The notes under the pieces: model-generated
Told to the model about the DNA's origin: nothing
The model's input: the letters and a program-made list of their open reading frames with translations, nothing else
Database searches by the model: none
Assembly: GCA_020429915.1 (NCBI GenBank)
Contig: JAGQKV010000026.1
Location: 2,217-66,216 of the forward strand
Reading direction: 5' to 3'
DNA length: 64,000 nucleotides
Source: Candidatus Omnitrophota bacterium
GTDB lineage: Bacteria > Omnitrophota > Gorgyraeia > Zapsychrales > Zapsychraceae
Program-made: the position numbers and the translations under genes
Shown: positions 11,052 to 64,000 of the stretch, piece by piece
Layout of the letters: every line of letters starts with the position of its first letter
How positions within the stretch are numbered: the stretch's first letter is position 1

Positions 11052-11060
11052 GTAACTTGA

Positions 11061-20872: not shown

Positions 20873-20879
20873 TCACAAG

Positions 20880-25422: not shown

Positions 25423-25440
25423 TTTGTTAAGGAGTATACC

Positions 25441-45109: not shown

Positions 45110-45233
45110 GCTAACCCCTAGTCCCGGGAGGGCGCTCCCTAAACACTCGCCGCTCATCGCTAACCGCTAGTATACAGTGTATCGGCGCCCATGGAGCTCT
45201 AACCATGCAGATTATCCATAATCTGGTACAATA

Positions 45234-46238: not shown

Positions 46239-46287
46239 CAAATAAATCGTATTGAAACAATAAAAGGAAATCAGAAAGGTTCAACGC

Positions 46288-47094: not shown

Positions 47095-47124
47095 GATTGT
47101 TTCCGGAAGGTCTGTTTACGTATT

Positions 47125-47844: not shown

Positions 47845-47947
47845 GCGGTTGCAAAATGAAGCCGCTTTAAAGAAAAGCGTTCTTTTTCAGCTTGGATGGT
47901 TATTGCAACTATTATCGACTAGAACAGTAACAGTCTAAAGCATACAT

Positions 47948-48631
47948 TTGGAGGTGCAAATGGGACCAAACAGGATTATGGTATTTTATGATGGTGGATT
48001 CTTTAGGCATGGTCAAATTTACTTTAATTATAATGAGGGTCGTGGGTGGTTCAGTTTGCCACAACTACACATAACATTAGAAAAGTACGTGGCCAGTAAG
48101 ATCAAAACGCCTGTTGAAATTACTAAAGTCGTTGGGGCACACTATTATGATGGTAGACCTTCTACAAATGTGGCAGACTCGGATAGTTTAGAGAAAGATC
48201 GTAAATTTGAAATGAGCCTTATATCTGCGGGTGTGGTGCCACATTATTTAGCCCTTAGTGAGAAATTAAAAGGCTCGCCACCAGAAGAGTCATATTATTT
48301 GATGCAAAAGGGTGTGGATGTAAAGCTTGCATTGGATGCATTAGATTTTGCTCATGACAATAGATTTGACGTAGCGGTATTAATTGCAGGAGATGGCGAT
48401 TTTGTACCACTTGTTCGGAAGGTTACCTCCTTGGGTAAGCAGGTTCTGGTGGCCTATTTCGAATTCGATTCATGGAAGGACAACATAGGAAAGAATCATA
48501 AACCATGCTATGTATCACGAGAACTGATTGATGCTGCCACAGCATCACTAAACTTTAATCAATTAGTTAAGGATCGAGATTGGAAGAGTGAGATACGATC
48601 ATTGTTCTTTAAACCAAAAACTTCTGAGTGA
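47948..48631 (+). CDS. NYN-domain (LabA/YacP-like) putative ribonuclease
   Basis: IMVFYDGGFF...GVDVKLALDALDFAHDNRFDVAVLIAGDGDFVPLVRKVTSLGKQV matches the NYN signature. Confidence 0.75.
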   Translation: MEVQMGPNRIMVFYDGGFFRHGQIYFNYNEGRGWFSLPQLHITLEKYVASKIKTPVEITKVVGAHYYDGRPSTNVADSDSLEKDRKFEMSLISAGVVPHYLALSEKLKGSPPEESYYLMQKGVDVKLALDALDFAHDNRFDVAVLIAGDGDFVPLVRKVTSLGKQVLVAYFEFDSWKDNIGKNHKPCYVSRELIDAATASLNFNQLVKDRDWKSEIRSLFFKPKTSE

Positions 48632-48850
48632 CGACTTTGAACAGAACTCGAAGAATGTAGATATAAATTGTGCCAATAATAATAGGGGCCCTAATAAAAT
48701 CCGGGCACCGAAAAAAATAGATACCAAATATTACAGGGCAATCTGGAATCTTTGTTTACGGGTCCATTGACATTTTCTCATTAGAATTGGCTCCTTTCCT
48801 TGGAGCTCAATTCTACACAATTTACTCACTTGCACTCAAGAATATTTGAA

Positions 48851-49008
48851 AATCAGGGGACACAATACCTATATCCGTCAGTGCCGGGATGATTGTGTCA
48901 GAGGGTTACCAATAACAATCTGCAATCTATAATTAAAGTACTCCAAAATCCAAAATCGGGGGACACAATACCTATTTCGCGCGAGTTAAGTATTGTGTCC
49001 CCTGATTT
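48851..49008. repeat. Three copies of the element AATC(A/G)GGGGACACAATAC(C/T)T: two direct copies 100 bp apart, plus an inverted copy forming a 13-bp perfect hairpin with copy 2
   Basis: Copies at 48851-48870, 48953-48973 and, inverted, 48990-49008. Hairpin GGGGACACAATAC ... GTATTGTGTCCCC. Confidence 0.5.
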
Positions 49009-49052
49009 CCTGATTTTAGGAGTTGTGGAGTAAACAGTGAGAGGGTGAATTT

Positions 49053-49589
49053 ATGGATAAGAAAATCTTGATAGAAAAGTATTTTCAGATAGTCGTAGAT
49101 AAATTCTCTCAGTATATGGAGAGTAACGATTTTCTGTTAGAAACAAGGGAAATACAAAACAACTCGGCGCAAGTAGTTTTTCGCAGCGGAAGCCGTTATG
49201 TGAAACTGCTTATGAACCTCGACGAGAGAGATGGGCCGAACTACTTCAATATAGTCCTGGGTGAGGGCTTATCAACATATCCTGAAGCAGATTGGAACTC
49301 CATAGCATTATGGAAACTTATGGAGTCTCATAGCCATGATAATGTCGGCGAATATGCTATAAGATTGACGGATGTGAAGGATGTTGAAAAAGTTATTGAT
49401 TTGGGATTGCAGGATTTAGAGGGTTACGGAAACGAATTTATGTGCGGAAAGATATCAACATTTCGGAAAGTGCGAGGAAAATTAAACAGGGATAGGGAGC
49501 CATATATTATTCATAAGTTTGATAAAGATAAAGGCCGAGTTTCGGTTGTTGATCCCGAGTCCGAGAGGTTGCGAAAGAAGTTTAGTTGA
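49053..49589 (+). CDS. Hypothetical protein (178 aa), low GC, unknown function
   Basis: AT-rich ORF on the same strand as the upstream nuclease/channel genes. No recognisable motif. Confidence 0.5.
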   Translation: MDKKILIEKYFQIVVDKFSQYMESNDFLLETREIQNNSAQVVFRSGSRYVKLLMNLDERDGPNYFNIVLGEGLSTYPEADWNSIALWKLMESHSHDNVGEYAIRLTDVKDVEKVIDLGLQDLEGYGNEFMCGKISTFRKVRGKLNRDREPYIIHKFDKDKGRVSVVDPESERLRKKFS

Positions 49590-49730
49590 AGAAAAAATAG
49601 TGCCGTTTTCATAAGGCCCCCAAGAGCAATTCTTTATAGTATAAATCAATCGTAGTAAATGAATTAATTCATAAACCTAAGCCGTTCTCTTTCTCGTCTC
49701 TATCCGCTAAACGCTATCCGCTGAATTCGA

Positions 49731-50240
49731 TTAGAACAATGTCCCCACGGTCTTCATCGGCAGAAAAAGGCGTAAGGGTTGATCGGGGAAGGGGATGAAG
49801 CCGAATTTCAGGTAGAATCCGGCGGCCTTCTCATGGAGGGCATCGACGACCACGGCCATCGATCCGATTTGCTCTGACTGGTAGTAACTTCGCCTTAAGG
49901 CATCAATCAAAAGGCGTGGTCCTAATCCCCGCCCCGCGCAGCGTTGATCCACGGCCAACCGGCCCAGCAGGGTTGCCGGTTTGAGCTTATACGGCGACAG
50001 TTTCAGTTTCTTCAAGACCTCCGCAGAAAAATCCTCTCTGGGGACATGGAGCGCCGACAGGGTATAGTATCCCCGGACGCGACCGTCCTCATCACAATGG
50101 ACGAACACGGCTGTTTCTTTGCGTTCCATATCCAGGCGGGCGTATTTGTGCAGATAATCATTCAGGACCGGTTCAATGCAGGAAAAGGATTTTCTGTCAT
50201 GCCGTTTGTGCAGCGGCTCGGTGAGAAACTCCCCCGGCAT
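49731..50240 (-). CDS. GNAT-family acetyltransferase toxin (TacT/KacT/AtaT-like) of a type II TA system
   Basis: GNAT core LGRLAVDQRCAGRGLGPRLLIDAL. The gene sits immediately downstream of and abutting a DUF1778 gene. Confidence 0.8.
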   Translation of the reverse strand: MPGEFLTEPLHKRHDRKSFSCIEPVLNDYLHKYARLDMERKETAVFVHCDEDGRVRGYYTLSALHVPREDFSAEVLKKLKLSPYKLKPATLLGRLAVDQRCAGRGLGPRLLIDALRRSYYQSEQIGSMAVVVDALHEKAAGFYLKFGFIPFPDQPLRLFLPMKTVGTLF

Positions 50241-50507
50241 TCAGGAAACGACTTTCCGGTAATCTTGGGCGGCCTTTTTCAGGGCCTTGTTCGGCGCAGG
50301 CGGGTTGAGGAGGGCTTCAATAAAAACCTTTTGATCATTTTCACTCATGGCGAGCTCTTGGTGGCGCTGAATAATGTGGGCCGCTTCTTTGTCGGCGGCC
50401 GATGTGACGAACTCCGTTACTGAGGCAAAATTCCCCAGCGCGGCGGCCCGTGCGTAGAGCTTCTTTTTTTCTTCCGTGATCCTCGTATCCAGGCGGGCTT
50501 TTTTCAT
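50241..50507 (-). CDS. DUF1778 (RHH) antitoxin, TacA/KacA-like
   Basis: 88 aa, MKKARLDTRITEEKKKLYARAAALGNFASVTEFV, typical of the DUF1778 family. It lies upstream of the GNAT toxin. Confidence 0.8.
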   Translation of the reverse strand: MKKARLDTRITEEKKKLYARAAALGNFASVTEFVTSAADKEAAHIIQRHQELAMSENDQKVFIEALLNPPAPNKALKKAAQDYRKVVS

Positions 50508-50518
50508 AGTTCAAGTGT

Positions 50519-50550
50519 ACAACATATGTACGTACAAGTCAATGCCGGGG
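50519..50550. promoter_or_regulatory. Imperfect palindrome immediately upstream of the antitoxin start (candidate TA autoregulatory operator)
   Basis: TTCAAGTGTACAACATATGTACGTACAAGTC, with inverted TGTAC/GTACA half-sites around a central ATAT. Confidence 0.45.
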
Positions 50551-50562
50551 GGCAGCGGTTAG

Positions 50563-50710
50563 CGTATAGCGGCTAGCGGTTAGTCTCAGGCAGCGTCATT
50601 TGCGTTTAGGGCTAAGCGGTTAGTTTTCCCGGTTTGGTTCTTCACTGAATCCTCTATCCACTATTTTCTATGCACTCTCTATTCGCTAGCCGCTATACGC
50701 TAATCGCTGG
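50563..50710. repeat. Long imperfect inverted repeat built from TAGCGGT-type heptamers (AGCGGTT AGCGTAT AGCGGCT AGCGGTT ... CGCTAGC CGCTATA CGCTAAT CGCT)
   Basis: The left arm at 50563-50634 and the right arm at 50684-50710 are reverse complements over about 27 nt. Confidence 0.6.
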
Positions 50711-50878
50711 AAATAAGAGCATATACACCACATCAAAACTGACGTATACTACGCTATATCAGCCTATAAACATCAAAATTGATGGGATGTGTTGTTCCAT
50801 GTGATATTGACGCAAGGCATCATATGTGATATATTATGGGCGTATATAAGTGTAATAAATCAATAATGAGGTCTTATT

Positions 50879-51229
50879 ATGGAATGGAAAGGGATGTCGG
50901 ATGAGGCAATTCTGGAGGAGATCGGGGGGCGGATCGCCCGCTACCGGTTGAACCGGAATATGACGCAGGCGGCCTTGGCGACCGAGGCGGGGGTGTCGGT
51001 GCCGACCGTCCAGCGCGCCGAGGCGGGGCGCTCGATTCAGGGGATGAAACTCGTGCGGATCCTGCGCGTTTTGGGCCTGCTCGAAAACCTGGAGGCGCTC
51101 ATCCCCGAACCGGCCGCCAGCCCGCTGCAGCAATGGCAACAGGACGGCCGTGTGCGTCAACGGGCCTCCGGTTCCGGCCAGCCATCCGCGGATGCCGATG
51201 AGGAATGGACCTGGGGAGACGACCAGTGA
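50879..51229 (+). CDS. XRE-family HTH protein (HipB-like antitoxin)
   Basis: HTH LNRNMTQAALATEAGVSVPTVQRAE. It lies immediately upstream of and overlaps the HipA-like gene. Confidence 0.7.
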   Translation: MEWKGMSDEAILEEIGGRIARYRLNRNMTQAALATEAGVSVPTVQRAEAGRSIQGMKLVRILRVLGLLENLEALIPEPAASPLQQWQQDGRVRQRASGSGQPSADADEEWTWGDDQ

Positions 51230-52527
51230 GTGTCGCCGAGGTGCGGCTGTGGGGCCGGGCGATCGGCGCCGTGGCCTGGGATGAGGCGCGGGGGACCGCG
51301 CACTTTGAATACACCCCGGCCTTCGCGCGCAGTGCCATCGAGGTTGCGCCGTTGATGATGCCGCTTAAAGAGGGGATCTATTCGTTTCCGTCGCTGGCCC
51401 GCGAATCCTTTCACGGCCTGCCGGGACTGCTCGCCGATTCCCTGCCCGATAAATTCGGCAACGCGTTGATCGATGCCTGGCTGGCCGCACAGGGCCGTAC
51501 GCCCGCGGGATTCAATCCGGTGGAACGCCTGTGCTATATCGGGACCCGCGGCATGGGGGCGCTGGAGTTTCAGCCGGCGCGGGCGCCGTTTCGCGCGAGC
51601 GGCGAACCGCTGGACATCGCCGCGCTGGTGGAGCTGGCCTCGGCGATCCTCACCCAACGCGATTCCTTCCACGGATCGTTCGCGTCAGATGAAAAGGGAC
51701 AGGCCCTGCGCGACATCCTGCGGGTCGGGACATCCGCCGGCGGGGCGCGGGCCAAGGCGGTCATCGCCTGGAATCCGGACACCAACCAGGTCCGCTCCGG
51801 ACAGGCCGCCTCCCGGGACGGATTTCAGCATTGGATCCTCAAGTTCGACGGGGTCACCGGCAACCGCGACAAGGAGCTCGACGATCCGGCGGGCTACGGA
51901 CTGATCGAATACGCGTACGCGCTGATGGCCGCCGCGGCCGGGATCCATATGAGCGAATGCCGCTTGCTGAAAGAAGGCGGGCGCAGCCACTTCATGACGC
52001 GCCGCTTCGACCGTACCGCAGACGGGCACAAGGTCCACATGCAGTCGCTGGGCGCGCTGGCGCATTTTGATTTCAACCGGGCCGGCGCCTATTCGTATGA
52101 ACAGGCCGTGCAGGTGATCCGGCGGCTGGGCCTGCCGATGAGCGCGGTGGAAGAGCAGCTACGCCGCGCGGCCTTTAACATCGTGGCCCGCAATCAGGAC
52201 GACCACGTCAAGAACATCGCCTTTCTGATGAACAAGGCCGGACAGTGGCGGCTGTCGCCGGCCTTCGATGTGATCTACAGCTACAACCCCGACGGGGACT
52301 GGACCGCGCGGCATCAGATGTCGTTTAACGGCAAACGCGACGGCTTCACCGCCGCGGACTTCACCGCCTTCGGACGGACGGCGTCGATGAAAAAGGGACG
52401 GGCCGAAGAGATCCTCGCCGAGGTCTCCGCCGCGGTCAAACGCTGGCCCGAATTCGCCGCCGCGGCCGGGGTGGATGAGCGCACGGCGGGGAGGATCGGG
52501 AAGGCGCACCGGAAAATCAGCGGTTAG
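51205..52527 (+). CDS. HipA-family serine/threonine kinase toxin
   Basis: HipA C-terminal motif DDHVKNIAFLMNKAGQWRLSPAFDVIYS plus a HipA N-terminal-like region. A GTG start at 51226 overlapping the hipB stop is an equally likely start. Confidence 0.85.
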   Translation: MDLGRRPVSVAEVRLWGRAIGAVAWDEARGTAHFEYTPAFARSAIEVAPLMMPLKEGIYSFPSLARESFHGLPGLLADSLPDKFGNALIDAWLAAQGRTPAGFNPVERLCYIGTRGMGALEFQPARAPFRASGEPLDIAALVELASAILTQRDSFHGSFASDEKGQALRDILRVGTSAGGARAKAVIAWNPDTNQVRSGQAASRDGFQHWILKFDGVTGNRDKELDDPAGYGLIEYAYALMAAAAGIHMSECRLLKEGGRSHFMTRRFDRTADGHKVHMQSLGALAHFDFNRAGAYSYEQAVQVIRRLGLPMSAVEEQLRRAAFNIVARNQDDHVKNIAFLMNKAGQWRLSPAFDVIYSYNPDGDWTARHQMSFNGKRDGFTAADFTAFGRTASMKKGRAEEILAEVSAAVKRWPEFAAAAGVDERTAGRIGKAHRKISG

Positions 52528-52675
52528 CGTTTAGCGGTTAGGGAATAGAAAGTGAACATACGGTATCAGAACGCCTCAATCCCAAATCTTGCGCAAGACA
52601 GGGGTTCAAGTTTTTGCGGGCCGGCGCGGGGTCGAAATAGTTGACAGGTGAACTAACAGGTGATAATCTTGAAAC

Positions 52676-53377
52676 ATGTCCGTCGCCGTTAGTCCCAAGA
52701 AGATTATTCAAATCCTGATTCTCATTGCCGGTATCGGTTATTGCTGGAACGCCCTGCCGCATTCAATGGTGTGGGCGGACCTGAAGGCCAAGTTTCACGA
52801 TCCCACCGCTAACCTGGACATCCGTCCGGGGGACATCATTTTTCAGGACATCCACGGCAAGCTTTTTCGCGTGATCGAAGACGTCTCGGGCAGCCGCCTG
52901 ACGCATTGCGGGATCGTGGTCCGGCATGACGGCGATCTTTATGTGCTGGAGGCCATCGGCCCGGTGATGCTGACGCCGCTGAAGGCGTGGGTCCACCGCG
53001 GGATCGGCAGCCGTTTCGCCGTGGTGCGGCTGAAGGCGCCGTACCGGTCGCACGTCCCGGCGATCATCCGCGCCGGGTATGCCTACCTGAGCAAACCGTA
53101 TGACTTCCAGTATGAGATGACCGACGACAAGATCTACTGTTCGGAGCTGGTATACAAGGCGGTGGAGACCGCCACCGGCATCCGGCTCGGTCCGCTGCGC
53201 CGACTGGGTGATCTGAAGTGGCAGGGCCACGAAGCCTTTATCCGGGCGATGACCGGCGGGGAATTGCCGTTGGACCGCAAGATCATCACGCCCGGCGATC
53301 TGGCCGCATCCGATAAAGCGGATGTCGTCTTCTCAAACTTTATACACACCCCATCACGCAAAAAGATTCTCCGATAG
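52676..53377 (+). CDS. YiiX-family (DUF830) permuted papain-like putative hydrolase
   Basis: GDIIFQD...LTHCGIVV...DKIYCSELVYKA, with an N-terminal TM/signal. Confidence 0.65.
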   Translation: MSVAVSPKKIIQILILIAGIGYCWNALPHSMVWADLKAKFHDPTANLDIRPGDIIFQDIHGKLFRVIEDVSGSRLTHCGIVVRHDGDLYVLEAIGPVMLTPLKAWVHRGIGSRFAVVRLKAPYRSHVPAIIRAGYAYLSKPYDFQYEMTDDKIYCSELVYKAVETATGIRLGPLRRLGDLKWQGHEAFIRAMTGGELPLDRKIITPGDLAASDKADVVFSNFIHTPSRKKILR

Positions 53378-53570
53378 TTTTCCGTCCCGCCTTTCCCGGT
53401 TCACTCCGGTAATTTGATTGAATCCGCAAAATAAGAATATGTTGAACTAACTGTTTTCTCGGTAAGTAAAGGTGATACAATACCTCATGGCTCCGGGAAA
53501 GTCATAATCCCGCTCGCGTCCCAGCTTCGGTTAACGGTGTTGTCGCCTTTCCGTCATAGCCCCGGGGGAA

Positions 53571-54185
53571 ATGTCCGTTCATCTCAAAATTGCGATGAAG
53601 ACACGACTCGGCTTATTGCCCATTCTGTTAGCTGTTTTCCTAAGCTGTCCCGCCGTCTGCCCGGCGCAAGAATATCTTCCCGCCAAGGTATCCGCCGCCC
53701 TAATATTTAAAATCCTGACCTACGACCGGTCATTGCCGGAACGTTTCGGCAAGGAGGTACGTATTGGTGTCCTGTATGACCGGCAGCAGTCCGCGGAGGA
53801 GGCATTTGCCCGCGAATTTATCGAAGGTATGCAGGCCGGGGCGGCCAAGTTCAAATCCGACGGGCTTACCGCACGTGTTGAAAAGCTGGCGTACGACGGG
53901 GGGATTTCTCCGGACGAAGTGGCGGCCCTTATTCGTGAGCAGAATATCGGTGTGATCGTCACCCTTAGTAACGATGGGGCGGTCTTGCGGGACGTGGCGG
54001 CCGCCACCCGTGCGGCCAAAGTGAATTCCGTCTGCTTGCAGCAGGGGTGCCTCGATCACGGGATCGCGTTCGGTGTGCTGATCAAGGGCGCCAAGCCAAA
54101 GATGTTTGTGAATGTCCCGCGGACGCGGGAGGAAGGCAGCAATTACAGCAGCAAGTTATTGACGCTCTGCGAGAAAGTCAATTGA
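53571..54185 (+). CDS. Periplasmic DUF4154/YfiR-like protein
   Basis: Signal peptide, then KVSAALIFKILTYDRSLP, which resembles the DUF4154 family. It sits directly upstream of a sensor kinase. Confidence 0.5.
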   Translation: MSVHLKIAMKTRLGLLPILLAVFLSCPAVCPAQEYLPAKVSAALIFKILTYDRSLPERFGKEVRIGVLYDRQQSAEEAFAREFIEGMQAGAAKFKSDGLTARVEKLAYDGGISPDEVAALIREQNIGVIVTLSNDGAVLRDVAAATRAAKVNSVCLQQGCLDHGIAFGVLIKGAKPKMFVNVPRTREEGSNYSSKLLTLCEKVN

Positions 54186-54195
54186 TGGCCAAGAG

Positions 54196-55752
54196 ATGAA
54201 GAGAATTACACACCAGAAGAGTTTGCGCGTCAAGTTCGTCGTCTATGTGATGGTCATGGTTACGCTGTTGATCGGGATGTCGACATTTGTGGTGTCTCTG
54301 GCTTACCAGAGTTACGCCAAGCAGACCCTGCTCGACAATGCCACCGGCACCATCCGCGCCTTAAGCTACGGGATCAGCGCCGCCCTCGAGTTCGGTGATA
54401 AGGAGCTGATTGCCGAGTCCCTGGGACTCCTGCGCAATACCGACGAGTTTGTCTCGGCGGCCGTGTACAGTCAAAGCGGGGAATCTATTGTGGAGGTTCG
54501 CTTGAAAGAGCACGTCAGTACGCATGATTTTCGTCAGCATATGGTTCCGTTGGCTGTCCCGGTCGTAAACGAAACCGATACCATGATCGGTTCCATCGAG
54601 GCCAAAATCACGACCTCTTATCTGGAAGATGAGATGGTCACCAATATCAAGCGGATCGTCATCGGCGGATTGATATTCCTGATGGCCTCGGCCTTCTTGA
54701 CATTTACCCTGGCCGGTCGTTTTCTGACGCCGTTGCTCGAACTCAAGAAGAGGATTGAGTCCATGGCCGCGCATGGAAAGTTCGAGCAGGTCCCGGTCAA
54801 TTCCTCCGATGAGATCGGCGACCTGGCCGCCAGCTTTAATCAAATGAGCGATGCTCTGAAGAAGACCATGACCAGCCGTGACCTGTTGCAGGAGGAGGTC
54901 GAGCGCCGCAAGCAGGCCCAGCAGGAATTGCAGGAGACGCAGGACCAACTGATCCAGTCGGAAAAGATGGCGTCGATCGGACAGTTGGCCGCCGGTGTGG
55001 CCCATGAAATCAATAATCCTATCGGCTATGTCAACGGCAACGTACAGGCCCTGGTCGAATACGTGGCGATCCAGAAAAAATGGCGGGAGAAGGTGGGCGC
55101 CCTGAAGGAGTCGGTGACGAACGACGATTGGGAAAAGGCCCGGGAGACGATCACCGCGTTGAAGGAGTTCGAAGAAGAGGAACAGCTGGCCCACATCTGG
55201 AAAGATACCGACGCCTTGTTAACGGAATCCCTGGAAGGGTTGAGTCGTGTGGCCAAGATCGTGCTGGATTTAAAGACATTTTCCCGGACGGACCAGGGTA
55301 CGGACGAGGCCGTCCAGGTGGACGATGTGATCAACGGTGTGTTGAATATTGTCCACAACGAAATTAAGTACAAGTGTCAACTCGAACAGGACCTGCAGCC
55401 GGTTCCGCCTGTCCGGTGCGGTTATCAGAAACTGAGTCAGGTCCTGGTCAATCTCATCATAAATGCCGCTCAGGCGTGTGAGAAAAAAGGCACGATCCGG
55501 ATTAGGACTTTCGAGAAACAGGGGAAGGTTTGTATAGAAATCGACGATAACGGTGAGGGGATCCCGCCGGACCGGTTACCCAAGATATTCGATCCCTTTT
55601 TTACGACGAAGCCCGTCGGTGAGGGCACGGGTTTGGGGTTGAGTATCAGTTATGAAATCATTATGAAATGCGGCGGCGACATCAAAGTGCGGTCCGAGCC
55701 GGGGAAGGGGACGACCTTTACCGTTGTCCTGCCCTCCGCGGCGAAAGCATAA
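54196..55752 (+). CDS. Sensor histidine kinase (TM + HAMP + HisKA + HATPase)
   Basis: H-box AAGVAHEINNPIGYV. HATPase GTGLGLSISYEIIMKCGGDIKVRS. Confidence 0.85.
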   Translation: MKRITHQKSLRVKFVVYVMVMVTLLIGMSTFVVSLAYQSYAKQTLLDNATGTIRALSYGISAALEFGDKELIAESLGLLRNTDEFVSAAVYSQSGESIVEVRLKEHVSTHDFRQHMVPLAVPVVNETDTMIGSIEAKITTSYLEDEMVTNIKRIVIGGLIFLMASAFLTFTLAGRFLTPLLELKKRIESMAAHGKFEQVPVNSSDEIGDLAASFNQMSDALKKTMTSRDLLQEEVERRKQAQQELQETQDQLIQSEKMASIGQLAAGVAHEINNPIGYVNGNVQALVEYVAIQKKWREKVGALKESVTNDDWEKARETITALKEFEEEEQLAHIWKDTDALLTESLEGLSRVAKIVLDLKTFSRTDQGTDEAVQVDDVINGVLNIVHNEIKYKCQLEQDLQPVPPVRCGYQKLSQVLVNLIINAAQACEKKGTIRIRTFEKQGKVCIEIDDNGEGIPPDRLPKIFDPFFTTKPVGEGTGLGLSISYEIIMKCGGDIKVRSEPGKGTTFTVVLPSAAKA

Positions 55753-55788
55753 AAGATATCGAGAAACACTTAACAATCGGAGAGCCCC

Positions 55789-57774
55789 ATGAAAAATCAC
55801 ACTCTTATTTTCCTGGCTATTCTGGTGGCAGCATGGCCGGCTCCGGTCACCGCGGCGGAAGACGCCAGCGTCGAACAGATGATGGAAATGTCGCTGGAGG
55901 AATTGCTGGACATCACGGTGACATCGGCAGGCGGCCGCGAACAAAGGATGAAAGAGGTGTCGCACGCGATGTTCGTTATCTCGCGCGAAGACATCGAACG
56001 CTCCGGCGCGCGCAACGTGCCGGACCTGCTGGAAAAGGTCCCCGGGATGCATGTGCAGAGTATCGACGCCAACCGGTATCAGGTGTCCATCCGTGGGGTC
56101 CCTGACCTGGCAACTTTCAATTTGCTGGTGCTGGTCGACGGCGTGATTGTGTACAATCCGATCTTCAACGGGACGGTGTGGGAATCGATTTACGTGTCCC
56201 TGGACGAGATCGATCGCATTGAAGTCATCCGCGGCCCGGGAGGAGTGCTATACTCACAAAACTCGGTCAACGGGGTTATCAACATTATTACACGAGCGGC
56301 CACCGACACGGAAAACTATGTGAGCCTGCGCGCCGGGAACTTTGATTACCGCAGCGCCGTGTTCGGGGCTGGCCATCAAAACGATAAACTTTCCGTACGA
56401 ACATACGGTGACTTCAGTTTCGACAACGGATATGACAAAATCCGTTCGGTGGGCCGCCTGAACAACCGGGCTGAAGAGGAGGCCGCCGGTTTCAAGGTCC
56501 AGTATGACTTCACTCCGGACCGCAAGCTGGTCCTGGACGGGAAATACAAGAACTTCGACGGGAACAATCGCGGGATCCTGGGAATGTCCCAGGGGAAATG
56601 GCAGGCGGAGATGTACGGCGGGTCCGCACGGTTCGACCAAAGGGTCGACGACCGCTACGACTATTTTGCCAAGTTAGATGTGATTCAACATACGTTTTCG
56701 TTTCTATCGACGCATGACAGCGATGTCGTCGCCTTCAGCGGTCTGACTCAGCACAATCTCCATTACGACCTGGCCGGCCGGCACATAGCTTCGCTCGGTG
56801 CCGAGTTGCGCTTCAGCCAGGCCAATACCAACAAGCTGGTCTTTCCGGCGCCCGCCGCCGATGCGCAGCGGTCACAGCGGGTGCTCAGTTACTTTATTCA
56901 GGATGAGTATCGGCCGGCGGACAAATGGATCATCACGCCCGGATTGCGTGTTAATTCCAACGATATGGTCCCGGACCACGTCGATAAGTATTTGTTGGAA
57001 CCGCGGCTGGCGGTGTTGTACAAGCTTCATCCCAAACACAGCCTGTTGGTATCGGGAGGGCGCAGCTATCGCACGCCGAGCATGGTCGAGCGTTTTTCAC
57101 AGCTGCCGCTGCAGGGAGGGCTTACTTACGCGGGAACGCCCGATCTCGAACCCGAACGGATCCATAATTATGAAATCGGCTGGCGCGGACTGATGCTGGA
57201 GGACCGGTTGAGTCTCAATGCCACCGCCTTCAAGCGCAAGACCACCAATCTTCAGATCATTACCGAACTCCAGGGGACCAGTTTCCTGTTTGACAATAAC
57301 GGCAAGATGACGAGCACCGGCCTGGAACTTGATGGTCAATATTCTTGGAACGAACGCCTCACGCTGTACGGGGATTATACTTATCTGCATCAGCAAACTT
57401 ATCCGGACAACAACGCTCAATACTATTACTTCGATTTTCTGGAGCAGAAGTTCTCCAAGCATCAGATCGGATTGGGATTACGCTGGACCAAGGACCGCTG
57501 GAAATGCGACTTTTACGTTAAGTGGCATGAAGGATTCCGCCAGCCGGCCAGTGTCGACGGTTTGCTTTCCCCGTTGTCGGAGGAGTATTCGGATTACATC
57601 AAGACCAAGATCCGGATCGCTTATGCCTTTGCCTTTCCCGGCCTGCACATGGATGCCGACGACGCCGAGCTGGAACTGGTGATTAATGACCTGTTCGGCG
57701 ACAATATCAATGAATCCGAGGCGAATTATTATCGCGAGCCCGATGTGTGGCTGGGGTTGAAGGTGAAATTCTAA
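55789..57774 (+). CDS. TonB-dependent receptor (paralog A, 661 aa)
   Basis: Signal peptide, plug motifs and a C-terminal Phe (LGLKVKF). Confidence 0.85.
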   Translation: MKNHTLIFLAILVAAWPAPVTAAEDASVEQMMEMSLEELLDITVTSAGGREQRMKEVSHAMFVISREDIERSGARNVPDLLEKVPGMHVQSIDANRYQVSIRGVPDLATFNLLVLVDGVIVYNPIFNGTVWESIYVSLDEIDRIEVIRGPGGVLYSQNSVNGVINIITRAATDTENYVSLRAGNFDYRSAVFGAGHQNDKLSVRTYGDFSFDNGYDKIRSVGRLNNRAEEEAAGFKVQYDFTPDRKLVLDGKYKNFDGNNRGILGMSQGKWQAEMYGGSARFDQRVDDRYDYFAKLDVIQHTFSFLSTHDSDVVAFSGLTQHNLHYDLAGRHIASLGAELRFSQANTNKLVFPAPAADAQRSQRVLSYFIQDEYRPADKWIITPGLRVNSNDMVPDHVDKYLLEPRLAVLYKLHPKHSLLVSGGRSYRTPSMVERFSQLPLQGGLTYAGTPDLEPERIHNYEIGWRGLMLEDRLSLNATAFKRKTTNLQIITELQGTSFLFDNNGKMTSTGLELDGQYSWNERLTLYGDYTYLHQQTYPDNNAQYYYFDFLEQKFSKHQIGLGLRWTKDRWKCDFYVKWHEGFRQPASVDGLLSPLSEEYSDYIKTKIRIAYAFAFPGLHMDADDAELELVINDLFGDNINESEANYYREPDVWLGLKVKF

Positions 57775-57852
57775 TATCCGCGTACGGATGTTACGTAAGT
57801 CCATTGCCGTTCTGTATAAATTGCAATTAGCATATTCCCTTGGGGAGGTGTA

Positions 57853-59838
57853 ATGAACCTTCGTATCCTTTTGCTTGTGGTTGCCTTGCTGTGGACGGGA
57901 GGGGGGCCGGCTTGGGCTGGTGATGACGCCAGCGTTGAGCAGATGATGGAGATGTCGCTGGAAGAATTGCTGAACATCACGGTGACATCCGCGGGCGGCC
58001 GCGAGCAGAAGATGAAGGAGGTGTCGCACGCAATGTTCGTTATTTGGCGCGAGGACATCGAGCGTTCCGGCGCGCGCAACGTGCCGGATCTGCTGGAAAG
58101 GGTCCCGGGGATGCATGTTCAGAGCGTGGACGCTAATCGCTACAACGTCTCCATTCGCGGAGTGCCCGACGCCGGAGTCTTCAATCTGTTGGTTTTGGTG
58201 GACGGGGTCATTGTGTTTAATCCCATGTATAACGGGACTCTGTGGCAATCCGTCTACGTGACGCTGGATGAGATCGAACGCATCGAAATCATCCGCGGGC
58301 CCGGCGGGGTGTTGTATTCCTCCAATGCGGTCAATGGTGTCATCAATATTATTACCAAACCGGCGACGTCAAACGAAAATCACGTGACGATGCGGACGGG
58401 TAATCTCGATTACCGCAACGCCGCCTTCGGCGTCGGACACCGGCGCGACAAACTGTCGGTACGCACATTCGCGGACTTCAGTTACGACCGTGGCTACGAT
58501 AAGGTTAAGGGTGTCGGGGATGTGTCCGACCGCTCCGATGAAGAATCGGCCGGCTTCAAGGCGCAATATGATTTCAATGAAGACCGGAAAGTGGTGCTCG
58601 ATGCGAAGTACAAGGGTTTTGACGGAGATAATCGCGGTATTTTAGGCGCAAGCCAAGGCAAGTATCAAGAGAAAATGTACGGGGCTTCACTCAGGTTCGA
58701 CCACAAGGTCAGCGACAGCTATGACTACTTCGGTAAGCTCGATATTATCCAGCACACATGGTCGTTGGTCACGACCCATGACAGCGATATCCTTTCATTT
58801 AGCGGTCAAACCCAGCACAATTACCGCTTTATGTTCATTGGGGATCATATTTTGTCGGCCGGAGCGGAACTGCGCTTCAATCGCGCAAATATCGGCGCGC
58901 AGACATTTCCCCGGCCGTATGCCAATCCTCATGAGTCACAGCGGGTCCTCAGCTATTTTGTGCAAGACGAATACCGTCCGGGAAGCAAATGGATTATAAC
59001 GCCGGGGCTGCGCGTCAATTCTAATCAAATGATTCCGGACAGCCTCGATACCTATTTGCTCGAGCCGCGCCTGGCCGTCGTCTACGAAATCAATAAGCAA
59101 CACAATCTGCGTCTCGCCGCCACACGCAGCTACCGCACGCCAAGTATGGCCGAACGTTATATCAGGGTCGATCTCGGAGGAGGGATTTTCTATCAGGGTA
59201 GTCCTGATATTGAACCGGAACGGGTGCATACTTTTGAAGCGGGCTGGCGGGGGCTCATGCTCGATGATCGGCTCAGCCTAAATGCGGACGTTTTCCTTAT
59301 GAAGGTTCGGGATGCGTTGATCATCACGGATCTCGAGTTTCCCAATATCAACTTTGAAACCAACGGTGATATGAAGGTCAGCGGCTTCGAAATGGACGGG
59401 CAGTATGCACTGAACGAACAGTGGAGCGTCTACGGCGATTACACTTACCTGAACAACAAAACCGACGCCGACCACAACAGCCAGTACTACGCCTTCAAAC
59501 TCAAGGAACAAAAATACTCCAGGCATCAGCTGGGTATGGGGCTGCGCTGGACCAGGAGCCGGTTGAAACTGGATGCTTACGTAAAGTGGCTCGACGGCTA
59601 CACGCATCCGGCGAGCCTAGACGGCGTACTGCATCCGGTGAACGTCGAGTTTCCCTGTTTCTTTAAAACCAAGTTCCGCATCGCCTACGCGTTTAAGATG
59701 CCCGGTTTTGATATGGATGATTATGATGCCGAAGCGGAACTGGTCGTCAATGATGTCATCGGGGCGAATACGATAGAGGCCGAATCACTGTATTACCGCG
59801 AACCTGATGTGTGGCTGGGATTGAAGGTGAAATTCTAG
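57853..59838 (+). CDS. TonB-dependent receptor (paralog B, 661 aa, tandem duplicate of paralog A)
   Basis: Same length as paralog A. Long identical stretches (DASVEQMMEMSLEELL, ARNVPDLLE, YREPDVWLGLKVKF). Confidence 0.85.
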   Translation: MNLRILLLVVALLWTGGGPAWAGDDASVEQMMEMSLEELLNITVTSAGGREQKMKEVSHAMFVIWREDIERSGARNVPDLLERVPGMHVQSVDANRYNVSIRGVPDAGVFNLLVLVDGVIVFNPMYNGTLWQSVYVTLDEIERIEIIRGPGGVLYSSNAVNGVINIITKPATSNENHVTMRTGNLDYRNAAFGVGHRRDKLSVRTFADFSYDRGYDKVKGVGDVSDRSDEESAGFKAQYDFNEDRKVVLDAKYKGFDGDNRGILGASQGKYQEKMYGASLRFDHKVSDSYDYFGKLDIIQHTWSLVTTHDSDILSFSGQTQHNYRFMFIGDHILSAGAELRFNRANIGAQTFPRPYANPHESQRVLSYFVQDEYRPGSKWIITPGLRVNSNQMIPDSLDTYLLEPRLAVVYEINKQHNLRLAATRSYRTPSMAERYIRVDLGGGIFYQGSPDIEPERVHTFEAGWRGLMLDDRLSLNADVFLMKVRDALIITDLEFPNINFETNGDMKVSGFEMDGQYALNEQWSVYGDYTYLNNKTDADHNSQYYAFKLKEQKYSRHQLGMGLRWTRSRLKLDAYVKWLDGYTHPASLDGVLHPVNVEFPCFFKTKFRIAYAFKMPGFDMDDYDAEAELVVNDVIGANTIEAESLYYREPDVWLGLKVKF

Positions 59839-60070
59839 CGGCATAACTTTTTTGTATCAGAAACTTACCCAAGTGAAACTTTTTCCGTGCCGGGTTGTCT
59901 AAGCGACAAATGGCCGGAAAAACACGTCCCCTCAACTGCAAACAACCTCCCAGACTGAGAAAAATGACCGTTCCGCGCTTTTTGCCCCGCGGGCCCCGGT
60001 TTTCCGTCCATCCGAAACTCAAGTTACAACACTTTAAATTTCAACGCTTTATCAAACAAAGGAGTCTGTC

Positions 60071-60652
60071 ATGAAACATTCACGCTTTATTCTGATCCTC
60101 ACGGTGATCGCCTTCGCCGCCGTACCCGCGTCCACCGCTCTGGCCGGTCAAGGCGGCCGAGATGGCTGTCCGGGCTATGGCTTGAACGGCAAGGGCTTTG
60201 ACGGTCACGGCCGCGGCCACGGTCAGCGCCGTGGCAAACGGGACAAGGGTATGGACGGCATGCTCTATGCCAAGACCCATTTTCTCCTTAAACATCAAGA
60301 TGAGCTGGGACTGAGCGAAGACCAGGTGAAGCAGATCAAGAAGCTGAAACTCTCCACCAAGAAGGCGGTCATCGCCAAAGAGGCCGAGATCGATATCGTC
60401 ACGGTCGACCTGCACGCCGTCCTTTGGGAAGAATCCCCGGATGCCGCCGCGGTCCGCTCCCTGGTCTCCAAGAAGTACGACCTTAAAAAGGAAAAGGCAC
60501 TGACCGTCACCGACGCCTTCCTGCAGCTGAAGACGGTTTTGACCGCCGAACAAAAGGAGAAGGCCAAGGCGGTTTGGAAGAAGAAACGGGACGGTCAGCG
60601 CAAGTTCCGCCAGATGCCTTCCGCCATGCCCGAACCGATGAACGACGAATAA
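60071..60652 (+). CDS. Spy/CpxP/ZraP-like periplasmic LTxxQ-motif protein
   Basis: Signal peptide, Gly/His-rich stretch, then helical regions with LSEDQVKQIKKL and LTAEQKEKAKAV (LTxxQ-type). Confidence 0.55.
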   Translation: MKHSRFILILTVIAFAAVPASTALAGQGGRDGCPGYGLNGKGFDGHGRGHGQRRGKRDKGMDGMLYAKTHFLLKHQDELGLSEDQVKQIKKLKLSTKKAVIAKEAEIDIVTVDLHAVLWEESPDAAAVRSLVSKKYDLKKEKALTVTDAFLQLKTVLTAEQKEKAKAVWKKKRDGQRKFRQMPSAMPEPMNDE

Positions 60653-60941
60653 TCCGCCGTTAAAAATCAGTCATTGATAAAAAGTGCAAAGAGGACAGTC
60701 CCGCGGGGCTGTCCTCTTTTCTGGTGAGATGTTTCCCGCCATGCAGCTCCGTGAAATCAAACAACGGGCAGAATCCTCATTAACTCATATACTCATCTAC
60801 ATAGGTCGCAACCTGTGGTTGCGACCTTTCTCATCATATTTTAATGTTCCCTTAATCTTCTCTTAATCTACGCTTTGCTACACTGCCACTCAGTTGGTTG
60901 ACGCAAACAACGGATAATCACCAACCTAAAAAAGGAGGTAT

Positions 60942-61274
60942 GTGATGAAAACGTTAATGGGTATCACCCTGCTGGCCCTGATCATCGGATTGGCTGCGCC
61001 GTCATTCGCTTTCTTCGGCCTGCCGGAAACGGTGGAGGGGACGGTCGAGGAGGTCGATGAAGACATCCTGGCCGTGCACACGGTCAAGGGGAACACGGAG
61101 AAGATCATCCAGATCCTGCTGGGGCCGGAGACCGAATACACTGACATAGCGGCCGCGGACGAGCTCAAGCCCGGCGATGTGGTTCAAATCAAATACAAAG
61201 AAAAGGACGGCGACCGCATCGCCGTCTCCGTGACGAAGATCGCGGCGAAGGTGTCGAGGGAGTTGAAGATTTAG
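60942..61274 (+). CDS. Small exported protein of unknown function
   Basis: Signal peptide MMKTLMGITLLALIIGLAAPSFA. RBS AAAGGAGG upstream. Confidence 0.5.
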   Translation: MMKTLMGITLLALIIGLAAPSFAFFGLPETVEGTVEEVDEDILAVHTVKGNTEKIIQILLGPETEYTDIAAADELKPGDVVQIKYKEKDGDRIAVSVTKIAAKVSRELKI

Positions 61275-61285
61275 TTCCTGTGAAC

Positions 61286-61420
61286 GTGAGTCGGGATAAG
61301 GGATACGGGATAAGTGATAGGAACAGTTTACCGCCGTTTCACCGGAGTAGGCCCGGGAGGCAAACCTGATTTGCCGCAGACTGTTCTTATCCCGTATCAC
61401 GTATCCCTTATCCCGTTAGA
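61286..61420. repeat. Inverted pair of GGGATAA-type heptamer repeats (CGGGATA AGGGATA CGGGATA AGTGATA ... TTATCCC GTATCAC GTATCCC TTATCCC)
   Basis: The arms at 61286-61325 and 61388-61418 flank about 60 nt. Located upstream of the response-regulator gene. Confidence 0.6.
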
Positions 61421-61433
61421 AAAGGAGCGCATC

Positions 61434-61796
61434 ATGAAGAAAAGAATCCTCATTGTCGACGACGAAGAACGGATCCGTAAGGTCTACAAACGCTTCCTGT
61501 ACGCCGTCAGCATCAAGCTGTACGACGTCACCGACACAGCCGATGCCGAGGAGGCCACCGAATGCCTGATCCGCCACCAGTTCGACCTGGTGATCCTCGA
61601 TCTGCGTATGGCCGGTGTGGACGGCCGGGAGCTGTTTGCGATCATCAAGGAATGTAACCCGCAGCAGAAGGTGATCGTGGCCAGCGTCTATCCCATCGAC
61701 CGACAAAGGCGCATGGTGCCGGCCGCCGACGACTACTTTGACAAGGCCGACGGCCCGATCAGGCTGCTGGAGGCGGTTACGCGGAATATGGCTTGA
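61434..61796 (+). CDS. Single-domain response regulator receiver
   Basis: RBS AAAGGAG. ILIVDDEE, LVILDLRMAGVDG. A start at 61434 is preferred over the track start at 61314, which runs through a repeat hairpin. Confidence 0.75.
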   Translation: MKKRILIVDDEERIRKVYKRFLYAVSIKLYDVTDTADAEEATECLIRHQFDLVILDLRMAGVDGRELFAIIKECNPQQKVIVASVYPIDRQRRMVPAADDYFDKADGPIRLLEAVTRNMA

Positions 61797-61815
61797 GAGG
61801 CCGAGGCGGTGGGAA

Positions 61816-61975
61816 GGAAATTTAGTGGTGATTAGTGATTGGTGATTAGGGATTTGGGATTATGCCCGTTGGTCTATTTTGGCATTAGGGTATGAATCAA
61901 GGGTGGCACCCTGCTTAACCAATCAAGGTCGATAATTCAAATCCCCAATCCCTAATCACCAATCCCAAATAAGCA
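61816..61975. repeat. Inverted pair of GGTGATT-type heptamer repeats (GGTGATT AGTGATT GGTGATT AGGGATT TGGGATT ... AATCCCC AATCCCT AATCACC AATCCCA)
   Basis: The arms at 61816-61860 and 61932-61975 are separated by about 70 nt. Confidence 0.6.
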
Positions 61976-62290
61976 CTTCCTTGGCACCAAATATCTTTAC
62001 GCAAATTTCACAATTCTCCTCTTTACTCGACGGTAGTCCGGGATTATACTGATATCAAATCGTAGGCGCACCGGGGTTTTTAGCCATCCCGGCCGGCAGC
62101 CCTTTGTTGGTCCATCCCATTGCCGGAATAAGTCGCGCGCCGTATTTCCTGATCAATACCAATTGAATTCCGGAAACCTGCCCCTGGGTCACCGAGGGAT
62201 ATTCCTCTGTCCGCGGCCGTGTTTCCGGTCCCGAATACCGATTAACACAGATTTGTATCTGGTTTTTCACCTTCACGGAGGAGGACCATT

Positions 62291-62521
62291 ATGAGTGATT
62301 TACTTTGGATGAACATGCAATTGTCCGACCGCTGTGTCTCCCGGATGCTGGAAGAAGAGACGCAAACGCAGGAAGACAACAAGACCCTTTTCGAGATGCT
62401 GGCCGAGACCTACTTGGCGCCGTTCCAGCACAAAAGCGCTCCGGGCCGGGGCAAGGCTGCCAAGCGCATATTCGGTGATACGCCGGGAAGTTTCGGCGGC
62501 CGCGACAGATCACAGTGGTGA
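62291..62521 (+). CDS. Hypothetical small protein (76 aa)
   Basis: RBS GGAGGAGG 6 nt upstream of the ATG. No recognisable motif. Confidence 0.35.
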   Translation: MSDLLWMNMQLSDRCVSRMLEEETQTQEDNKTLFEMLAETYLAPFQHKSAPGRGKAAKRIFGDTPGSFGGRDRSQW

Positions 62522-62635
62522 CCGCGCGGGACACTTTTATTCCCGGGGACAAGTTCCGGCCGGACGTGTGTCGGGTCGATTTCCGGTAAAATCCGGGACG
62601 GGACGCTGATTATGGACTATAATGCCTGAAATGCA

Positions 62636-62797
62636 GCGGATAGCGTCTAGCGGTTGGGGTTGAGTAAGGGGGCAGCAATTAGGAAACAGTGAAATTGGGG
62701 AATAAACATTCCAGCCTCGTCAGTACTAACCACTCATCCCTAACCCCGAAATGGTGCCTCCTGAAACTAACCGCTAGCCGCTAAACGCTAACCGCTA
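62636..62797. repeat. Inverted pair of TAGCGGT-type heptamer repeats (GCGGATAGCGTCTAGCGGTTGGGGTT ... AACCGCTAGCCGCTAAACGCTAACCGCTAG)
   Basis: The arms flank about 100 nt. Related short copies occur at 45145-45170, 49699-49723 and 52518-52543. Confidence 0.6.
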
Positions 62798-62811
62798 GAA
62801 ATAAGTGCATC

Positions 62812-64000
62812 ATGAGCGATAGTATTTCTCCCTTAAAGAAACTCGCCTTTACAGTCATCGCCGTCATCCTGGCGCTGGTCATTATCCTGTCCGTCAATGA
62901 AGTTGTTTTCCGAATCGTGCGCGGCGCCCCCAATCCGCTGGGGGCGACGACCCAGCAGACCATGACGTCGCTGTTCGAACCGGGGACCGTCATGAAGGAC
63001 AAGACCAATCAGTTCAACGAGTACAACTACACCGCGCATATCAACAGCCACGGTTACCGCGGCCCCGAGTTTGTCACGCCCAAGCCCGCTGGGGTCAAGC
63101 GTGTCATGCTCATCGGTGATTCGTTCACCTTCGGTGTAGGCGCCGACGATGACGAGACCATTCCTGCCTTGGTGGGCGAGCGTTTAAAGAAGATCGATCC
63201 GGCGGTGGAGGTAATCAACGCCGGGGTCGGTCATGCCTCACCGATTTATCACTGGGTGAACCTGCAGAATTTTCATCTGAAACACCAGCCCGACATCGTG
63301 GTCCTGCTCCTGGACCTGACCGACATCCAGGACGACTGGCGGCATGAGGGGCAGGCCCGCTACGACAAGAAGGGGAATATCAAGGCCTTCGACGTCACCT
63401 ATGAAAACGGTAAGTGGTCGTGGTGGCGCTGGCTGACCTTTTATTGCGCCAGCTGGCTGCAGTTCGACAAGAAGGTGCTGCGGTCGTTCGAGAAGAAAAA
63501 CATCATCGGCTGGGAAAAGTACAAGGAGCTGAAGAAAGAAGGCATCCGCTCCAAGGCCTACATCGTCAATATGGAAGAGGGGAGCCTGCCGGAGAAGAAG
63601 CTGCTGGAGTTCGACGGGCTGCTGTTCCTGCGCGGGAAGACGCGCGAGCGCCTGATCCGCAAACAGTTCAAGCGCACCGCCGGTTATCTCGACAAGATCA
63701 AGGCCGAGCTCGACGCGCGCGGGATCCCGCTGGTCCTGGTCGCGTATCCGTACGGGATTTACGTCGGGGCCGACGAGTGGAACGAGGGACGTTACACCTG
63801 GGGCTTCGACAAAGACCGGCTCTATACCGACCACCTGCCTTTTGAAATCATCGGCGAGTACGCGCAGTCGCGCGGTATTCCCTATATCAACACCACCCCC
63901 GCTCTGATTGCGGCCCGCAAGGATTCCCGGGAACCGTTCTATTTCAAATGGGACGGTCACATGACCCCGGCGGCGAATCGTATCGTGGCGGATGTGCTTG
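62812..64000 (+). CDS. SGNH/GDSL-family hydrolase (AlgX/AlgJ-like), 3'-truncated at the window end
   Basis: N-terminal TM anchor, GDSL block MLIGDSFTFGVG and catalytic DGHMTPAAN near the window end. The ORF has no stop within the window and is not in the track. The antisense ORF 63238-63960 is rejected. Confidence 0.7.
   Translation, partial: MSDSISPLKKLAFTVIAVILALVIILSVNEVVFRIVRGAPNPLGATTQQTMTSLFEPGTVMKDKTNQFNEYNYTAHINSHGYRGPEFVTPKPAGVKRVMLIGDSFTFGVGADDDETIPALVGERLKKIDPAVEVINAGVGHASPIYHWVNLQNFHLKHQPDIVVLLLDLTDIQDDWRHEGQARYDKKGNIKAFDVTYENGKWSWWRWLTFYCASWLQFDKKVLRSFEKKNIIGWEKYKELKKEGIRSKAYIVNMEEGSLPEKKLLEFDGLLFLRGKTRERLIRKQFKRTAGYLDKIKAELDARGIPLVLVAYPYGIYVGADEWNEGRYTWGFDKDRLYTDHLPFEIIGEYAQSRGIPYINTTPALIAARKDSREPFYFKWDGHMTPAANRIVADVL

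Follow-up and report, generated by a model that had tools for sequence, protein, structure and literature searches.

A 64,000-nt stretch of contig JAGQKV010000026.1 from a Candidatus Omnitrophota bacterium (here called the window) carries tandem arrays of 7-nt units, most of them intergenic and many arranged as inverted pairs. We favor, with a probability of about 0.6, the reading that these elements are non-coding palindromes akin to repetitive extragenic palindromic (REP) sequences and MITEs (miniature inverted-repeat transposable elements), with arms composed of degenerate 7-nt microsatellites. They are of the same class as the bacterial heptanucleotide long simple sequence repeats (LSSRs), and their closest known counterpart is the set of convergent GGGAATC pairs of Xanthomonas. 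New here are a polarity rule that places the G-rich arm 5′, an arm consensus among elements built from TAGCGGT units, two copies (E10 and E11) at sites that are empty in relatives, and the swap of one element (E9) for another between strains. Elements are numbered E1 to E11 by position, with E1 to E10 lying in the window. The sub-families found in this Omnitrophota lineage are TAGCGGT, GGTGATT/GTGATGA, GGGATAA, and GAATATC.

In total, ∼82 kb was read, including the window (∼89% coding), 7.8 kb downstream, and 10 kb upstream. Contigs of two other samples were base identical to the window, and the close homologues of two window proteins all came from Omnitrophota. The window PutA was 100% identical to a protein of a Candidatus Omnitrophica metagenome-assembled genome. 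Tandem Repeats Finder returned 11 period-7 arrays of 3.1 to 5.0 copies each in the window, with starts at 11066, 20881, 49700, 50554, 50679, 52519, 61293, 61388, 61828, 61940, and 62767. In a self-match scan requiring at least 17 of 21 matching positions, period 7 gave five arrays, and the remaining periods between 4 and 12 gave zero or one each. With at least 15 of 21 matches, lag 7 yielded 11 arrays, whereas 100 dinucleotide shuffles averaged 0.55 and never exceeded 2. TAGCG-type patterns were counted 30 times in the window versus 5.2 in shuffles, GTGAT-type patterns 22 versus 1.8 times, and GGGATA-type patterns 5 versus 0.04 times. Ten of the 11 arrays were wholly intergenic, and the remaining one overlapped a gene end at its stop codon. 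An earlier, model-made preliminary description of this DNA had reported tandem 7-nt units at intergenic sites, and both the enrichment of period 7 over the other periods and the intergenic placement bear this out. LSSRs in the sense of Mrazek 2007 are said to be tandem units of 5 to 11 nt in runs beyond the expectation from composition. The window arrays showed such unexpectedly long runs as well as the depletion from coding sequence seen for units whose length is not a multiple of three. With ∼17 elements in ∼82 kb, the distribution was patchy, and no heptamer array was present in the upstream 10 kb.

The elements were mostly placed close behind genes. The distance from stop codon to element was 0 to 24 nt for E1, E3, E4, E7, E8, and E9, and the spacer was typically filled up to the next ribosome-binding site. 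Upstream stops were nearer to the elements than downstream starts were (8 versus 49, 5 versus 27, 24 versus 314, and 13 versus 64 nt). Gene ends were altered by elements in three cases, namely hipA at E7, the putA gene of a relative with 89% identity, and an open reading frame (ORF) at a GAATATC array. The hipA stop codon (TAG, 52525 to 52527) forms part of the first unit of E7. In the 89% relative, the stop of PutA is a TGA within the array (L003:3277-3279). The ORF, which lies beyond the window end, continues into a stop-free GAATATC array (L001:14700-14804) and encodes 174 amino acids here and 155 in a relative with 82% identity. Because stop codons are supplied or removed at gene ends, the elements are a hazard for assembly and gene calling.

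Within the interval emphasized by the preliminary description (50563 to 62797), the arms of four elements aligned as inverted repeats with 84 to 90% complementarity. The arms of E6 (50553 to 50583 and 50679 to 50709) are 31 nt long and 90% complementary, those of E8 (61292 to 61334 and 61373 to 61415) 43 nt and 84%, those of E9 (61824 to 61861 and 61940 to 61977) 38 nt and 87%, and those of E10 (62635 to 62655 and 62769 to 62789) 21 nt and 86%. The arms are direct tandem heptamers rather than palindromes of the REP-module kind, and they are spaced 40 to 115 nt apart around variable center DNA. Folding scores relative to shuffles were strong for E6 (z = −6.7, DNA fold), E8 (−6.9), E9 (−5.4), and E10 (−5.6), moderate for E3 (20877 to 20975; −3.0), and poor for E1 (11059 to 11160; −1.65). 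Each well-formed element is thus predicted to be able to fold, on either strand, as a bulged hairpin of 25 to 45 bp. Inverted arms and long bulged hairpins had been proposed as typical of the listed sites; about half of these sites conform, with arms 40 to 115 nt apart, and the sites at 14185, 49699, and 52518 gave poor pairs. At 14185 (E2), the partner extends over only ∼12 bp and lies ∼135 nt away.

The strongly stabilized folds and the conserved centers of E10 and E11 would also be expected if the centers were structured cis-regulatory RNAs or small RNA genes, with the heptamer arms merely closing the stem. We find this hardly credible, as Rfam returned no match at gathering score across the window and none even at an E value of ≤1 in 49500 to 64000. 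Moreover, centers vary between loci and orthologues while the arms persist, and folding shows no strand bias.

The same layout was found far outside Omnitrophota. A scan of species-representative genomes for AGCGNNTAGCGNNTAGCGNNTAG matched at least 120 loci, and the matches listed came from Omnitrophota (at least 8 loci), Gemmatimonadota, Acidobacteriota, Verrucomicrobiota, Planctomycetota, Chloroflexota, Alpha- and Gammaproteobacteria, lineages of the candidate phyla radiation, and others. Among the matches listed (129 arrays), a reverse-complement partner within 400 nt lay downstream in 40 cases and upstream in 3. In viral contigs, the G-rich arm came first in 55 cases versus 1 for TAGCGNN arrays and in 27 versus 1 for GTGATNN arrays. 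The repeats had been described as genome specific, which does not hold: TAGCGNN and GTGATNN arrays arranged in this inverted way are spread over many phyla and are also present in viral contigs, and convergent pairs had already been published for Xanthomonas (PMC4692102) and Geobacter metallireducens (PMC2700814). No paper in the searchable literature contained the literal repeat strings found here.

The polarity census covered any period-7 array with an inverted partner at all fetched loci; exclusion of the four searched units and removal of duplicates left 100 pairs. Among these unselected pairs, the 5′ arm was G-rich in 82 and C-rich in 16 (P = 7 × 10⁻¹²). When each distinct unit was counted once (54 units), the G-rich arm was 5′ in 43 versus 11. 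Every paired element in the window and its extension likewise has the G-rich arm first. Because the layout is palindromic, the rule is valid on both strands. Purine skew was a weaker predictor of arm order (73 versus 26).

Other candidate rules were rejected. Keto (G+T) skew performed weakly (58 versus 38), G-C skew being the real predictor. TAGCG as a special unit was ruled out by the abundance in viral contigs of the control permutations TGACGNN and TGGCANN (at least 120 and 93 loci, with polarities of 9 versus 4 and 7 versus 7, respectively). Because such permutations are also common, heptamer arrays are a general feature and are not tied to one unit. Across phyla, no outer terminus CAGCGG was found to be conserved, the base preceding the first AGCG being mostly T. 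Finally, we considered that period-7 TAG, TGA, or TAA might close all six reading frames, but the stop-bearing strand was 5′ in only 60 versus 45 of the unselected pairs, and Xanthomonas GGGAATC contains no stop, though the idea suits the units of this genome and the ends of two genes (hipA here and putA in L003).

It seems quite unlikely to us that the chirality rule means the hairpins are anything beyond tolerated junk, whether a sequence-independent device or the footprint of one unrecognized generative mechanism. A device of this kind may be a bidirectional, U-tract-free transcription barrier or insulator in which the C-rich, Rho-loading arm is never exposed first. A generative mechanism may make the G-rich repeat strand first, with fold-back synthesis then supplying the copy. 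Either account, if true, would provide a testable answer to the 35-year-old puzzle of heptamer repeats such as the short tandemly repeated repetitive (STRR) sequences.

The barrier deserves separate consideration as a full explanation, in which the G-rich arm, on emerging first from either direction, would stop or pause RNA polymerase or hide a C-rich Rho-loading site. The elements do begin 0 to 24 nt past stops, with less distance to these than to the following start, their chirality is symmetric, and a consensus scan of the region found fewer terminator-like sites than in shuffles (8 versus 16). In Xanthomonas, transcripts start or stop at such repeats above controls (PMC4692102). However, E10 and E11 are located in 5′ untranslated regions (UTRs) and E8 in a closely spaced gene pair, positions at which strong termination would shut off the gene that follows. 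U-tracts are absent from all elements, and the argument from chirality is one that we infer. We therefore view a barrier as an unlikely basis for the elements.

Relationships among the elements provide evidence on their spread. The TAGCGGT elements E6, E7, E10, and E11 have a common arm consensus, CAGCGGTTAGCGTTTAGCGGCTAGCGGTTAG, and a common right flank, GAAATAAGNGCA; terminal inverted repeats common to many copies, as in MITEs, were found in this sub-family only. E11 is a 92%-identical paralogue of E10 located 1.6 kb downstream, outside the window. A common center is restricted to these two elements (91.7% identity over 109 nt), which occupy two different 5′ UTRs. This placement is assigned because they start 10 to 13 nt past −10-like boxes, E10 beginning 13 nt past a TATAAT box. 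In two relatives, with ALGX proteins of 82% and 78% identity, the corresponding UTR sites are empty, and the empty UTRs of both retain promoter-like sequence and a ribosome-binding site. One of these relatives has other heptamer hairpins at other positions.

Comparison of units between relatives also covered E3 and E9. The 89%-identical relative retains E3 at the orthologous site, with its arms conserved and its center replaced by one that is 60 nt longer. In a strain with ∼99% identical flanks, a hairpin of GGGACNN units that folds equally well (z = −6.2) substitutes for E9 (L583:1-170 versus window positions 61830 to 61993). Both the GTGATTR/GGGATTW units of E9 and its center are changed in this strain, and E10 is 100% identical. 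No donor copy of the swapped variant was present in the available sequence. The empty E10/E11 sites, the persistence of E3, and the replacement of E9 together show, at the level of sequence comparison, that elements are gained, kept, and swapped between relatives while the inverted, G-first layout persists.

We note two further arrays in the 78% relative. A TTCGAAA-type heptamer hairpin occupies a 5′ UTR (L127:2743-2878) of a gene that has none here, and GTGATCA-type arms lie ∼650 nt apart around a 159-amino-acid ORF (L127:1945-2650).

The sub-families might be true MITEs, i.e., deletion derivatives of insertion sequences moved in trans by a transposase that recognizes terminal inverted repeats built from heptamers. 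Such an origin fits the 31-nt arm consensus common to four to six TAGCGGT elements, the near-identical E10 and E11 at two loci with empty orthologous sites in relatives, and the element size of 100 to 190 nt. On the other hand, the sole insertion sequence in ∼82 kb belongs to the IS481 family and has unrelated ends, and none with matching ends was found. Target-site duplication was inconsistent, with GAAAT-like flanks at E10 only, and the outer terminus is not conserved across phyla. The GGTGATT and GGGATAA arms are not conserved between loci, and the layout was seen with 54 different units in unrelated phyla, for which a sequence-independent process is a better fit. True MITEs are accordingly a possibility to which we give little weight.

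In our preferred reading, that of REP/MITE-like palindromes with microsatellite arms, the units would expand through replication slippage in a 7-nt register, and the likeness of the arms would be kept via gene conversion or template switching within a strand. Spread of entire elements would be duplicative, as do MITEs and REP doublets forming hairpins (REPINs), to tolerated positions just past stop codons or between promoter and ribosome-binding site. Any effect would be of the type ascribed to REP sequences and bacterial interspersed mosaic elements (BIMEs), with a transcript hairpin or cruciform-prone DNA marking or insulating transcript boundaries. The elements would offer target sites for insertion sequences and would not act as a sequence-specific regulator.

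Several observations weigh against this reading. Among the elements checked for target-site duplication, GAAAT was found on both sides of E10, a partial match at E11, and none at E6 and E4, so there is no consistent duplication. No cognate transposase or gene for a REP-associated tyrosine transposase (RAYT) was found within ∼82 kb, and three centers are single copy in the available sequence. Because of these three points, duplicative mobility is shown for E10 and E11 only. Neither slippage nor simple selection for a hairpin accounts for the G-rich-5′ rule. E6, with divergent promoter-like sites on its two sides, may be untranscribed. Sense and antisense RNA folds were inconsistent, with ∼7 elements favoring sense, 6 antisense, and 1 neither; this gives no hint that selection acts on one strand at the RNA level.

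Among known systems, the Xanthomonas GGGAATC repeats (Rehm et al. 2015, PMC4692102) form 70 to 75 opposite-strand convergent pairs, with four units preferred and a distance of ∼28 nt from the upstream stop. Their gene context is mostly kept between species, and their length is variable (PMC4692102). Transcript starts and stops are more frequent at these repeats than at controls, although a function has not been established (PMC4692102). The elements described here resemble them in having 7-nt units, approximately four per array, in convergent opposite-strand pairs with the G-rich strand 5′ on each, and in lying between genes, for the most part co-directional ones, close to or overlapping the upstream stop. 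In both, repeat length differs among relatives while the kind of site is retained. They differ in their units, in the coexistence of several families, and in centers of 40 to 115 nt. In addition, the arm of one sub-family here is fixed and resembles a terminal repeat, and near-identical copies of this sub-family are dispersed.

G-quadruplexes have been proposed for Xanthomonas GGGAATC and Nostoc GGGGAYT repeats, and the arms here are also G-rich, with G3 tracts in the GGGATAA and GGGATTW units and the G-rich strand placed as in Xanthomonas. However, the commonest units (TAGCGGT, GGTGATT, and GTGATGA) contain no G3 tract, and because most units lack one, the Xanthomonas explanation is not transferable. 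The canonical four-tract motif (four G3+ tracts with spacers of 1 to 7 nt) is absent from both window strands, which contradicts this reading for the window. Regulatory G-quadruplexes are thus exceedingly improbable here.

Cyanobacterial STRR sequences, described in 1990, consist of units such as CCCCAGT, TTGGTCA, and CAACAGT in heterocystous cyanobacteria. We know of no function accepted for heptanucleotide repeats since then. As in STRR sequences, the repeats in the window are tandem heptanucleotides, mostly intergenic, in many copies per genome, and with units typical of the lineage, which supports the likeness in kind suggested in the preliminary description. They differ from STRR sequences in unit sequence (TAGCGGT, GGTGATT, GTGATGA, and GGGATAA) and in their Omnitrophota host. 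Few of the repeats in Nostoc are paired as inverted repeats (PMC4692102).

The "global regulator binding sites" of G. metallireducens (Aklujkar et al. 2009, PMC2700814) are tandem repeats of 7 to 9 nt in opposite-strand pairs at variable distance. They differ in their units (MTYCTGA, GTTGCTYN, and TCTCCGTS), are described in supplementary alignments only, and are read as putative protein-binding sites. By analogy, the arrays here might be operators at which each dimer of a DNA-binding protein reads one heptad, as with the omega repressor of pSM19035. The heptad of this ribbon-helix-helix repressor, WATCACW, is the reverse complement of the AGTGATT units found here, so that some units presumably match it. 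The 7-bp register and the convergent orientation also suit such a protein, and the paired G. metallireducens sites have been annotated as regulator sites (PMC2700814). Nevertheless, one genome contains four or more unrelated types of unit, 40 to 115 nt of variable DNA lie between the arms, and E9 is swapped for an element with different units in a near-identical strain. The elements mostly follow stop codons rather than lying at promoters, and no linked gene for a candidate binding protein was found. We consider operator arrays very unlikely.

REP sequences, BIMEs, and REPINs share with these elements their abundance, intergenic location, two-module inverted design, long hairpin, use as targets by insertion sequences, and strain-level gain and loss; co-transcription with flanking genes is a further feature of REP sequences and BIMEs. 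REP modules differ in being imperfect palindromes instead of tandem microsatellites. A RAYT transposase (IS200/IS605-like Y1) is required by REPINs, and none was seen here within ∼82 kb. The IS481-family insertion in E4 speaks for the preferred reading, as insertion sequences insert into REP sequences. They also adjoin some of the paired Geobacter sites (PMC2700814).

The TAACTGA repeats of marine Beggiatoaceae (MacGregor 2015, PMC4679880) are direct repeats of two to six copies located in intergenic DNA, immediately before start codons, and are scattered across phyla. In contrast to the elements in the window, they comprise one unit type, include 1 indirect repeat among 170 sets, and were proposed as sites for a translational regulator. 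According to the same paper, heptanucleotides outnumber the other longer microsatellites in many prokaryotes, with polymerase slippage as a proposed cause (PMC4679880).

Taken together with these systems, Omnitrophota is an added phylum with very dense heptanucleotide repeats, approximately one per 5 kb, in which the hairpin layout is retained through strain-to-strain turnover. The G-rich-5′ rule is simple and falsifiable. If functional, it opens an experimental route to what the elements do; if it has no function, the elements are still useful as strain markers.

Individually, E1 (GGTGATT type, 11059 to 11160) extends from an AhpC-like gene (stop at 11051) toward the next plus-strand gene, with a left array at 11059 to 11093 and a degenerate right arm at ∼11130 to 11160. 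E2 (GGTGATG type, 14180 to 14361), a weak case, lies between divergent genes and has a left array at 14180 to 14210 and a short partner at ∼14345 to 14356. E3 is a GTGATGA-type hairpin (20877 to 20975) beginning 5 nt past the putA stop. The left half of E4 (44012 to 44125; CAGCGAC TAGCGGA... with an inner GGGATTA/GGGGTTA tier) is separated from the right half (45111 to 45170, terminating in ...CATCGCTAACCGCTAG) by the insertion sequence. This IS481-family copy (44126 to 45110, minus strand) contains a transposase gene at 44131 to 45045 (rve, LZ_Tnp_IS481) and is flanked by a CTAA direct repeat at 44122 to 44125 and 45111 to 45114, in agreement with the earlier statement that an IS481 had inserted into one of the repeats. 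E5 (49700 to 49723) is a solo C-rich arm, CTATCCG CTAAACG CTATCCG CTG, at the border of a low-GC island, and no left partner was found for it.

E6 is a TAGCGGT-type hairpin (50550 to 50709) between the putative divergent promoters of tacAT-like and hipBA-like modules. E7, also of the TAGCGGT type (52514 to 52680), has an intact left array (52514 to 52545) and a decayed right end or partner. The GGGATAA-type hairpin E8 (61284 to 61418) fills the spacer between a DUF5666-like gene (stop at 61274) and a response-regulator gene (ATG at 61434). E9, a GGTGATT/GGGATTW-type hairpin (61820 to 61993), is downstream of the response-regulator stop (61796). TAGCGGT-type E10 (62634 to 62811, including the right flank GAAATAAGTGCA) ends right before the ATG of an SGNH/ALGX gene (62813).

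Further elements in the 7.8 kb past the window end are E11, a duplicated GTGATGG hairpin, three tandem GGGATAC elements, and a GAATATC-type hairpin. The GTGATGG hairpin is part of a 210-nt tandem duplication (93% identity; L001:12531-12920, just past the window end) in which the final ∼80 nt of the SGNH/ALGX gene are copied along with the adjoining hairpin. The GGGATAC-type element is present in three tandem copies with a unit of ∼172 nt (L001:13660-14160), downstream of a bPH_5 gene, and the left ends of the copies are similar to E8 (GAGTCGGGATAAGGGATACG…GAACAGTYTRCCGCC).

The low-GC island (46240 to 49700; 41 to 45% GC versus ∼57% elsewhere) encodes HSDR_N-like, ion-channel-like, and NYN-domain proteins and was probably acquired horizontally. 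It is bordered on one side by the interrupted E4 and a DUF1016/SNase gene and on the other by the solo arm E5. Within it, a motif of ∼25 nt (…GGGGACACAATAC…), unrelated to the heptamers, occurs three times in direct and inverted orientation (48841 to 49017). The modules around E6 (49731 to 52527) are back-to-back toxin-antitoxin systems, with TacA/GNAT (TacT-like) on the minus strand and HTH/HipA on the plus strand. Just upstream of the window, a defense-like cluster (L582:47-7659) encodes an SbcC-like ATPase, two GmrSD-type nucleases, an ADP-ribosylglycohydrolase, and an MqsA-like antitoxin, and it contains no heptamer array. Elsewhere in the window, two tandem paralogous TonB-dependent receptor genes of 661 codons each (55789 to 59838) follow genes for a CHASE8/HAMP histidine kinase and a DUF4154 protein. 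A 3,278-amino-acid DUF2341/laminin-G protein is encoded at 24 to 9860, and a cluster at 24280 to 27292 comprises an FAD-dependent oxidoreductase, a type III polyketide synthase-like enzyme, and a UbiE-type methyltransferase.

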